DNA of 38,946 nt. Source: Klebsiella phage SEA1f. The translations under genes and the position numbers were made by a program. Below are positions 5,373 through 12,813 of the stretch, one piece after another. Each line of letters begins with the position of its first letter. Positions within the stretch are counted from its first letter, which is position 1. The stretch lies in sequence record OR287805.1; one strand, 5' to 3'. The notes under the pieces were generated by a model that was not told the origin of the DNA, made no database searches, and saw nothing but the letters and a program-made list of their open reading frames with translations.

Positions 5373-5843
5373 ATGTTCGGTAAGTCCAAACTTAAATCAC
5401 GAATCAAAGAGTTGAACATGAAGGTGGCATACTTGGAGCGAGTCGTAACGGTCAGGGATAAAGACAACGAGAGACTGAAGGTTAAACTTGCTGAATCAGA
5501 GCGTAAGCGCCTAACGCCACCACCGGCTGTAACTGTCAAGCGTATGGTAGGCATCAGGTTCAAGGCACTGTTCAACGGTCTGTACCAACCGACTGAGTTC
5601 AAGACAGGGCCGGGTAGCTGTGGGAAGACAGTGACGCACTTCACCGTATCGAAGACTGAACGCACCATTACCATCCACCAGCACCACGTAGACGGGTCTC
5701 AGAAAGACTTTGAGTACCGACTGAGCGACATCGACGGTCGCATCCAGTATGACTACGAGCTGGTTAAGGTCTACGGAAAAGAGGCCGAACGTGAGCGAGC
5801 GCTTCAGGCATTCATGCAGGTAAGGCCGCGCATCGTCTTCTAA
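5373..5843 (+). CDS. Hypothetical early protein, 156 aa. Predicted N-terminal coiled coil; basic.
   Basis: RBS gaagaggt lies 8 nt upstream. Its stop overlaps the next promoter. No homolog recognised. Confidence 0.6.
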   Translation: MFGKSKLKSRIKELNMKVAYLERVVTVRDKDNERLKVKLAESERKRLTPPPAVTVKRMVGIRFKALFNGLYQPTEFKTGPGSCGKTVTHFTVSKTERTITIHQHHVDGSQKDFEYRLSDIDGRIQYDYELVKVYGKEAERERALQAFMQVRPRIVF

Positions 5844-10194: not shown

Positions 10195-10642
10195 GGTACA
10201 GTTCAACCCACGGTCCCGGACTGACGCTATCTTCGTTCACTGTTCGGCTACCAAGCCAGAGATGGACATCGGGGTAGAGACCATCCGTATGTGGCACAAG
10301 CAGCAAGGCTGGCTGGACGTAGGCTACCACTTTATCATCAAGCGCGATGGTACTGTGGAAGAGGGTCGCCCGGTCAATGTAGTAGGGTCACACGTTAAGG
10401 ACTGGAACTCACGGTCTGTAGGCGTCTGCCTTGTAGGTGGAATTGACGCTAAGGGTCAGTTTGAAGCTAACTTCACTCCAGCCCAGATGAACTCCCTGCG
10501 CAACAAGCTGGATGACCTGAAGGTCCTGTATCCTCAGGCAGAAATCAAAGCACATCATGACGTAGCACCAAAGGCGTGTCCAAGTTTCGACTTACAGCGC
10601 TGGCTGTCTACCAATGAACTGGTAACTTCCGACCATGGATAA
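10184..10642 (+). CDS. N-acetylmuramoyl-L-alanine amidase (T7 lysozyme, gene 3.5), also an RNAP inhibitor.
   Basis: 152 aa. VQF..R..TDAIFVHCSATKP, WH...GWLDVGYHFIIKRDGTVE.GR, GSH.K..N..S.GVCLVGGID, FTPAQM.SL, HH.VAPKACPSFDL..W....ELVTSD matches T7 gp3.5. Confidence 0.95.
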   Translation: MVSKVQFNPRSRTDAIFVHCSATKPEMDIGVETIRMWHKQQGWLDVGYHFIIKRDGTVEEGRPVNVVGSHVKDWNSRSVGVCLVGGIDAKGQFEANFTPAQMNSLRNKLDDLKVLYPQAEIKAHHDVAPKACPSFDLQRWLSTNELVTSDHG

Positions 10643-10740
10643 GATAGACTTTCTGCTTATCCTTCTGTTATCAGGAGCAATCACCTTCGTAGGATGGTGG
10701 TTCTTCCCTGAACACTTTGAACTCTAAAGGAGAACACTCA

Positions 10741-10956
10741 ATGATTAAACTTATCGAATTTCTTGGTCGTCTGGTGGTGCGTGGTTATCGTCGTGCTGCG
10801 GTTATGGAACGAAAGGTAGCAGAGAAGACTGCTGACGGTGCGGCGGATGCTGCTGCTCTGGCTGACAAGTTGACCATCGCGTCACTGGAAGCTGGTATGA
10901 AGGCTCGTCAGGCTGACACCAAGGCTGACCAGTTGTCCCAGTTCTTTAAAGCCTAA
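10741..10956 (+). CDS. Small conserved T7-group protein, 71 aa (MIKLIEFLGRLVVRGY...QLSQFFKA).
   Basis: AAGGAG lies 9 nt upstream of the ATG. Ala-rich coiled-coil-like. Resembles a small T7 protein (MFKLIKKLGQLLVRMY...QLSKFFE) whose gene number I cannot pin with confidence. Confidence 0.55.
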   Translation: MIKLIEFLGRLVVRGYRRAAVMERKVAEKTADGAADAAALADKLTIASLEAGMKARQADTKADQLSQFFKA

Positions 10957-10974
10957 ACTATCACCATAGGGATG
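10952..10974 (+). promoter_or_regulatory. Phage RNAP promoter variant (CACCATAGGG), +1 G at 10969. Drives the gene 4 region.
   Basis: cctaaactatcaccatagggatg. Confidence 0.65.
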
Positions 10975-11019
10975 GGACCATGAGTCCTGTCCCTTTGTTC
11001 GCATTTGAGATTAAGAAAT

Positions 11020-11098
11020 GTCTCCATAGCTCAAACGGTAGAGCGGCGGGTCGTGATGGCCTATTGCGATTAGGGTTCGAATCCCCGTGGAGACGCCA
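11020..11098 (+). tRNA. tRNA-like element with encoded 3' CCA. Canonical acceptor, D and T arms; the anticodon arm is non-canonical or unresolved.
   Basis: Acceptor stem gtctcca / tggagac (7/7 bp), discriminator g, then cca. D arm gctc-aaacggta-gagc (A14, G18 G19, A21). T arm taggg-TTCGAAT-ccccg. The 26 nt between them cannot be folded by eye into a standard 5-bp anticodon stem with a 7-nt loop. Lies in the gene 4 leader, 15 nt before the gene 4 RBS. Confidence 0.5.
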
Positions 11099-11109
11099 CT
11101 AAGGAGTGA

Positions 11110-12813
<1,704 letters not shown>

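Follow-up and report, generated by a model that had tools for sequence, protein, structure and literature searches.

An apparently non-decoding tRNA-like element in the gene 4 leader of Kayfunavirus phages: structure, conservation and a possible role in RNA processing

In bacteriophage T7, class II promoters are followed by RNase III sites, such as R3.8 and R4.7. The locus considered here belongs to Klebsiella phage SEA1f, a member of the T7-like genus Kayfunavirus, and was studied within a stretch of 38,946 nucleotides (nt) of its DNA (sequence record OR287805.1), referred to below as the window; all positions are window coordinates. It is a 79-nt element resembling a transfer RNA (tRNA), located at 11020-11098 in the transcribed leader of gene 4, which encodes the primase-helicase. 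Like the RNase III sites of T7, the element is a structured RNA that separates the first gene of a unit from its phage promoter. Those sites, however, are long bulged hairpins cut by RNase III, whereas the element is a cloverleaf for which another nuclease is proposed. Co-transcripts of tRNA and messenger RNA (mRNA) that are cut by RNase P are known from the thrU-tyrU-glyT-thrT-tufB operon of E. coli and from the tRNA 'punctuation' of mitochondria. In them too, a single transcript carries a tRNA-shaped unit and, immediately downstream, a coding region. Their tRNAs decode, whereas the element apparently no longer does and may act purely as a structure. Non-decoding substrates of RNase P and tRNA-like RNAs include the C4 antisense RNA of phages P1 and P7, the CI RNA of P4, mascRNA and the 3′ tRNA-like structures of plant viruses. 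They share with the element a tRNA-like or acceptor-like fold used as a handle for tRNA enzymes. Unlike in the present case, their processing has been demonstrated and their roles are known; they show no sequence relationship to the element and, to our knowledge, none of them lies in the mRNA leader of a T7-like phage.

Petrzik et al. (2021) mentioned the element as a 'pseudo-tRNA' (PMC8402661). The Kayfunavirus 'pseudo-tRNA' of that paper and of GenBank is the same element at the same locus; an 84-nt query covering the element and its flanks is 100% identical in 22 records. The GenBank labels include tRNA-Thr (MT862763), tRNA-Pseudo(GTG) (MW748991), tRNA-OTHER (PQ3369xx) and plain 'tRNA'. No tRNA is reported in other Kayfunavirus papers, whose phages do not carry the element. 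The earlier mentions are one-line annotations, none of which covers structure, indel, selection pattern or function, and our literature searches turned up no relevant work on its structure or function, on a role as a decoy or on cleavage by RNase P. The element has been annotated and mentioned in print before, and the window provides one more member. The structural analysis, the evidence of selection, the account of the indel and an unannotated analogue in KP32-like Klebsiella phages appear to be undescribed.

Structure and conservation of the element

Judging from the sequence comparison, the element is an RNA module that derives from a tRNA but has ceased to decode. It is predicted to fold into an L-shaped tRNA mimic, the top half of which (acceptor, T arm, D arm with G18/G19, and CCA) seems to be kept by selection, while a 7-bp interrupted helix, whose 5-nt loop varies freely, has taken the place of the anticodon arm. 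The 5′ part reads GTCTCCA TA GCTC AAACGGTA GAGC G GC GGGTC GTGAT GGCCT ATT GC GAT and is followed by the 3′ part TAGGG TTCGAAT CCCCG TGGAGAC G CCA. Its features are as follows.

11020..11098, + strand: tRNA-like element (the Kayfunavirus 'pseudo-tRNA'), 79 nt, found by ARAGORN and by the Rfam tRNA model (36.7 bits)
11020..11026, + strand: 5′ strand of the acceptor stem, GTCTCCA, forming seven perfect pairs with 11088-11094; 100% paired in nine variants
11029..11044, + strand: D arm, 4 bp GCTC/GAGC, loop AAACGGUA with G18 and G19; stem invariant in all variants
11046..11067, + strand: central arm, pairs 11046-47/11066-67 and 11048-52/11058-62 with a 3-nt bulge at 11063-65, from the pairing in nine variants
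11053..11057, + strand: variable 5-nt loop GUGAU; UUUAU, GUUAU, AUGAU or GUGAA in relatives
11071..11087, + strand: T arm UAGGG / UUCGAAU / CCCCG with one A-C mismatch, flagged in the Rfam alignment
11088..11098, + strand: 3′ strand of the acceptor stem TGGAGAC, discriminator G11095 and encoded CCA (11096-98), read from the sequence

A preliminary description of the locus, which proposed runs of ARAGORN and of the Rfam tRNA and transfer-messenger RNA (tmRNA) models, had described the acceptor stem, the discriminator G with CCA, the D arm and the T loop TTCGAAT, and reading the sequence bears this account out. ARAGORN calls exactly one tRNA in the whole window, at 11020-11098, and names it tRNA-Thr(cgt). 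The Rfam model RF00005 matches 11020-11095 with 36.7 bits (gathering threshold 29; E=2.8e-4), leaving the anticodon arm as an unaligned insert and flagging a single T-stem mismatch. The two programs agree on the acceptor, D and T parts, and neither reported a tmRNA in the window. RF00005 scores are 35.9-37.0 bits in four relatives and 27.2 bits, under the threshold, in Kosakonia phage Kc166A. The nucleotides at the tertiary positions U8, A14, G18, G19, T54, Psi55 and C56 are present. A canonical elongator tRNA (RF00005) shares with the element the 7-bp acceptor, the D arm with G18/G19, the TTCGAAT T arm, and the discriminator with CCA. The element differs from it in being embedded in an mRNA leader and in lacking a 5-bp stem that closes a 7-nt loop, a U33/R37 context and a stable anticodon. 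The element is real and more than a chance resemblance, since it is conserved in 34 phage records and two metagenome contigs, shows compensatory changes and evolves slowly.

Models of the central arm were scored over nine distinct aligned variants, with each pair in each variant counted as one cell. A slipped 5-bp helix, 11048-52/11058-62, turned out to be paired in 100% of the cells. All its single changes keep or improve pairing (G-U to A-U; U-G to U-A or C-G), two extra pairs, 11046-47/11066-67, extend it, and it is found in the minimum-energy fold of most variants. The stem with a 7-nt loop favoured by ARAGORN, and put forward in the preliminary description as the best option for a Thr-CGU anticodon, was rejected: only 68.9% of its cells are paired, its G-G pair never forms, it is broken in three of the nine variants and it leaves no position 26. 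The minimum-energy fold of the window sequence itself, a 10-bp hairpin with a GCC loop, was discarded as well, since eight out of the ten pairs fail to form in one variant or more. The preliminary description was right that a standard anticodon stem-loop is absent: no 5-bp anticodon stem with a 7-nt loop carrying U33 and a purine at 37 was found. Its Thr-CGU option also fails on the identity of the anticodon, because ARAGORN assigns near-identical homologs to Thr(cgt), Ser(tga), Met(cat) and Stop(tta), the label Pseudo(GTG) is used elsewhere, and no single anticodon identity is common to the orthologues. The 5-nt loop GUGAU cannot present an anticodon in the standard way. The element is considered non-decoding because the conserved pairing leaves a 5-nt loop and no anticodon is stable among the variants.

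Evolutionary rates were compared as extra alleles per site in 11 genomes, the same genomes being used for the third codon positions of gene 4. The genomes were picked for having variant elements, which makes the comparison for the body conservative and inflates the value for the loop. The counts (extra alleles/sites) were:

tRNA body outside the central arm: 4/58
central stem: 3/16
5-nt loop: 4/5
leader: 12/47
third codon positions of gene 4: 39/126

Relative to the third codon positions, change in the body is about 4.5 times slower (Fisher p=2.8e-4), whereas the loop exceeds these positions with p=0.04, a value inflated by the choice of genomes. Across the variants, the acceptor and D stems are paired at 100% and the T stem at 80%. 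The D stem is unchanged in Kc166A too, and the D loop is altered only in phage pO91, by two bases. Acceptor pair 2-71 changes from U-A to C-G in pO91. In Kc166A, a T-stem G-C pair is replaced by A-U in a compensatory manner, the A-C mismatch becomes A-U, and the partners A7 and U66 are both deleted, which leaves a perfect 6-bp acceptor stem. These comparisons suggest that the tRNA body outside the central arm is under purifying selection. The evidence is real but thin, because diversity is low: 22 of the 34 copies are identical, and the covariation rests on two divergent genomes.

One argument for horizontal spread, 100% identity of the element despite flanks of 89%, was dropped, as the divergence lies in the upstream small gene and the start of gene 4 is 97-98% identical. 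One C of the CCCC in the T stem (3′ strand) is missing from the copy in metagenome contig CYGL01000127.1. This would shift the T and acceptor pairing, but could equally be a homopolymer sequencing error.

Distribution, indel and an analogue in KP32-like phages

Relatives were defined as the 186 records matching the surrounding 801 nt. The preliminary description proposed looking for the element at the same locus in other T7-like genomes, and it is indeed there in 34 of these records, all of them Kayfunavirus. Their hosts are E. coli, Salmonella, Enterobacter, Citrobacter and Kosakonia. Each genome has a single copy, and its site never varies. The expectation that phages of the T7 group rarely carry such elements also held: among 80 gene-4 loci of T7-like contigs in IMG/VR, only one has a tRNA call, and that locus is phage ST31. 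A metagenome scan added only two further contigs with the element, and blastn against 5,426 E. coli genomes gave no match.

The best overall match of the window is Escherichia phage SP7, with 95% identity across 91% of a query of 24 kb. Genomes with and without the element differ by an 88-nt block between two TAAG copies, which were located by comparison with empty sites.

11012..11015, + strand: upstream TAAG copy bounding the 88-nt indel
11100..11106, + strand: downstream TAAG repeat (11100-03), overlapping the gene 4 Shine-Dalgarno sequence AAGGAG (11101-11106)

The empty site reads GATTAAGGAGTGACC in phages SH3 and SP7, and the run across the site in genomes without the element is GATTAAGGAGTGACCAATG. 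In phage CHRF_30001 the direct repeat is 5 nt long, TTAAG. Short direct repeats are a trace of deletion by slipped pairing, a process known for T7. The element is dispensable. Its presence is most likely ancestral and its absence the result of repeated loss by deletion between the TAAG repeats, given these short repeats and the analogue in KP32-like phages described below.

The position of the element is constant, about 51 nt past the transcription start (+1) and directly before a ribosome-binding site (RBS), even where the next gene is not gene 4. In Citrobacter phage SH5 (L007:498-863), a gene for an HNH endonuclease is located between the element and gene 4, and in Kc166A (L006:694-1233) the same place is taken by a 179-amino-acid open reading frame (ORF) without a Pfam match. 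Both inserted genes use the RBS that serves gene 4 in the window.

A search for a donor tRNA in phages returned weak D-arm matches only. Pattern matches in IMG/VR were ordinary tRNA-Lys or tRNA-Trp, except ST31 itself, and a scan of genome contigs with the 5′ half of the element yielded mainly ordinary tRNA-Lys genes, mostly in metagenome-assembled genomes of Acidobacteriota. As a side observation, some prophage-like IMG/VR contigs that are not T7-like (L016:9943-10021, also L023 and L033) carry a tRNA-like gene with a T-rich, oversized anticodon loop. In L016 this gene adjoins a normal tRNA-Met and is reported by ARAGORN as 'tRNA-??? anticodon (tttt)'; genes of this type could be four-base-decoding or frameshift-suppressor tRNAs.

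A covariance model of the element gave weak matches (13.8 bits) upstream of gene 4 in Klebsiella-phage contigs. These led to a KP32-type sequence, GGTCAG G CTAAGGTGCACTTGGCGTAGCGCTGCGTTTCA TTCGGG TTCGATT CCCGGA CTGACC, 66 nt in length (GGTCAG…TTCGGGTTCGATTCCCGGACTGACC), for example in the IMG/VR contig region L323:1219-1284 and also among L311-L360. An acceptor-like stem and a T arm, each of 6 bp, make up its paired parts; over eight variants both stay 100% paired, all changes being wobble-compatible, and its middle contains no anticodon arm. Upstream of it is the homologous promoter leader (…TTTCCCTGTTGTCGC…), and an RBS follows immediately; phage 140f has here the TAAGGAGTGA of gene 4, as the window does. 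Among 37 KP32-like loci with the recognised leader motif, 19 have the element and 18 do not. It is present in 145 phage records (Klebsiella/Raoultella) and annotated as tRNA in none, and neither ARAGORN nor the Rfam tRNA model detects it. The KP32 type, found in the genus Przondovirus, resembles the window element in the core GGGTTCGAWTCCC, the leader position, the perfect pairing and the presence/absence polymorphism. It differs in its length, in another acceptor sequence and in having neither an anticodon arm nor CCA. Their positions make common descent of the two elements likely, but the reciprocal covariance search gave no significant match.

Proposed processing in the gene 4 leader and competing explanations

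The transcript carrying the element is defined by the following features.

10954..10972, + strand: phage RNA polymerase promoter with +1 at G10969, an exact consensus match kept in all relatives aligned
10969..10993, + strand: 5′ leader hairpin of the transcript, 10 bp with loop CAUGA, in the minimum-energy and centroid folds of 10969-11135
11113..12813, + strand: gene 4, primase-helicase, 566 amino acids, from the ORF list, with the Pfam domains Helic-prim_T7_N, Toprim and DnaB_C

The element lies within the transcribed leader of gene 4, downstream of this promoter, which agrees with the suggestion in the preliminary description that it is co-transcribed with gene 4 from a phage promoter. The distance of 51 nt from the +1 to the start of the element, given there, is correct. 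The 15 nt at the other end, which had been assigned to the RBS, separate the element from the ATG of gene 4 (11113), and AAGGAG begins 3 nt past the CCA. The leader hairpin is kept in genomes with and without the element.

A degenerate tRNA or processing signal, one of the options raised in the preliminary description, fits all the sequence evidence and is kept as the best hypothesis. In its specific form, a tRNA-derived processing module cut by host RNase P, it is our preferred reading, held tentatively. Bacterial RNase P recognises the top half of a tRNA, i.e., the stack of acceptor and T stem together with the elbow. Because this half is what the element retains, host RNase P would most likely cut between U11019 and G11020. 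Such a cut would remove the 51-nt primary leader and produce a tRNA-capped gene 4 mRNA with a base-paired, protected 5′ end. With a second cut past the CCA, the products would be a stable RNA of about 79 nt and an mRNA beginning at its RBS. The process would then be a tRNA-based counterpart of the RNase III sites after T7 promoters. The context of the putative cleavage site in the window comprises G+1 paired to C72, U at -1, R73-C74-C75, a GCCA 3′ end and an intact T-loop/D-loop elbow. G+1-C72, U-1, RCC(A) and the elbow favour the RNase P of E. coli. A stack of acceptor and T stem of about 12 bp is found throughout (7+5 bp in the window, 6+5 in Kc166A, 6+6 in the KP32 type), and retention of only the acceptor and T arm in the KP32 type is the pattern expected if only the half recognised by RNase P matters.

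Besides the low diversity mentioned above, several observations speak against processing by RNase P. Thermodynamic folding favours the cloverleaf only modestly (z = -1.2). At -1, pO91 and Kc166A have an A, and neither Kc166A, which reads A-ACC, nor the KP32 type keeps the CCA. Covariance models fail to establish that the Kayfunavirus element and the KP32 element are homologous; in the reciprocal search, the KP32 model matches only a 13-nt T hairpin in the window (E=4.5). The closest relative, SP7, and about 80% of the Kayfunavirus records lack the element, so that any benefit must be conditional. Finally, our literature searches found no transcriptome or biochemical data on cleavage or on a discrete small RNA.

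Some of the same observations would be at home in a different account, in which the element is a decaying relic, i.e., a captured tRNA gene that lost its anticodon arm, has no function and is heading for deletion. The anticodon arm is degenerate, annotators have used pseudogene labels, most relatives including SP7 do without the element, the Kc166A copy with its lost CCA scores below the Rfam threshold, and the KP32-type copy is even more eroded. A relic, however, should not have a body that changes about 4.5 times slower than third codon positions, nor stem substitutions that are all compensatory or wobble-compatible in both element types. It also fits poorly with the joint deletion of both partners of one acceptor pair in Kc166A and with an erosion so selective that it affects the anticodon half only, and we consider it unlikely. 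A trans-acting tRNA mimic seems improbable to a similar degree. According to this explanation, the transcript or an excised RNA of about 79 nt is a decoy or sponge for a host tRNA-binding protein, such as a tRNA-targeting defence nuclease, a toxin or a tRNA-modifying enzyme, and the variable loop reflects an arms race. The patchy, accessory-like distribution across phages of hosts from E. coli to Kosakonia, the strong phage promoter that drives the element, and a 5-nt loop varying at or above the near-neutral rate next to a conserved body are all compatible with it. Yet the rate of the loop is inflated by the choice of genomes, and the KP32-type analogue has no such arm. The anticodon nucleases known to us read 7-nt loops, for which a 5-nt loop is no substrate mimic, the literature searches found no paper on such a decoy, and no known target supports the idea.

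That the element works as a tRNA, be it a decoding tRNA-Thr(CGU), an unusual tRNA or a suppressor, is hardly credible, and this reading is rejected on the strength of the comparative pairing. The ARAGORN call, the Rfam score above threshold, the core tertiary nucleotides with the encoded CCA, and the tRNA-Thr label in some GenBank records would agree with it. They are outweighed by the defects of the CGU stem listed above, by the conserved pairing that leaves a 5-nt loop, and by the absence of the element from most relatives. In addition, the variants turn the supposed anticodon to CAU or shift the ARAGORN frame to UGA/UUA. An element acting at the DNA level, such as a miniature insertion with a 4-bp target duplication, an attachment-site remnant or the cargo of a homing endonuclease, is very unlikely too. 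The exact 88-nt indel between TAAG/TAAG or TTAAG/TTAAG and the HNH endonuclease gene that adjoins the element in SH5 are what suggests it. However, deletion by slipped pairing leaves the same short direct repeats, and the HNH gene, seen in only one of the genomes examined, is a separate insertion that took over the gene 4 RBS. Despite the direct repeats, the element occupies a single, constant locus with one copy per genome, without dispersed copies, without terminal inverted repeats and without any copy in the E. coli genomes searched. Neither host tRNA identity nor a nearby integrase, which would mark an attachment site, was found, and the phage group has no integrase.

A broader version of the preferred RNase P reading is possible, and we offer it with still more reserve. 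At least two T7-like genera, Kayfunavirus and Przondovirus, may keep a mimic of the tRNA top half in the leader of the replication unit, so that host RNase P, instead of or besides RNase III, punctuates and stabilises their mRNAs. The excised RNA, whose 5-nt loop changes fast, might also act in trans, e.g., as a sponge for a host defence or enzyme that binds tRNA.

Neighbouring features and significance

The genes around the element are those of an amidase, a DUF5471 ORF and the primase-helicase. A 40-amino-acid ORF at 10980-11102, which overlaps the element, is not a gene: its start is ATG, GTG, ACG or TTG in relatives, and pO91 has a 1-nt insertion. The promoter consensus TAAACTATCAC(T/C)ATAGGGA occurs in eight copies on the + strand vs. 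none expected in shuffled sequences. The copies of the consensus TAAACTATCACTATAGGGA, all on the + strand, are at window positions 5841, 10954, 17112, 20315, 21314, 25812, 33088 and 38321 and represent a provisional promoter map of the genome. At 11097-11108, CACU, formed by the end of the CCA and the next bases, is predicted to be able to pair with AGUG just past the Shine-Dalgarno core. In predicted folds of the element-bearing allele, this pairing would put AAGG in a 4-nt loop. Further upstream, a 30-amino-acid hydrophobic ORF, MDKIDFLLILLLSGAITFVGWWFFPEHFEL, is located at 10635-10727 on the + strand, with its start inside the amidase stop region ATGGATAA. It sits in a 75-nt insert (10643-10717) that is missing in ST31, SH3 and U8 and present in SP7, where the annotation has a 37-amino-acid hypothetical protein, SP7_0018, over it.

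Phage genome descriptions should leave the element out when decoding tRNAs are counted; the isotype it is given varies with the program used and with changes of one base. tRNA finders overlook the KP32-type copy, and some records place a 'hypothetical protein' over it. The importance of the element is moderate, because it is dispensable, narrowly distributed and already on record. If the processing model is true, T7-like phages would have a second, tRNA-based way to shape their mRNAs, and the element would be a case from nature in which a tRNA gene has shrunk to a structural handle. The model would also explain the apparent tRNA in the therapeutic-candidate phages LM33_P1 and ST31 and in many KP32-like Klebsiella phages.

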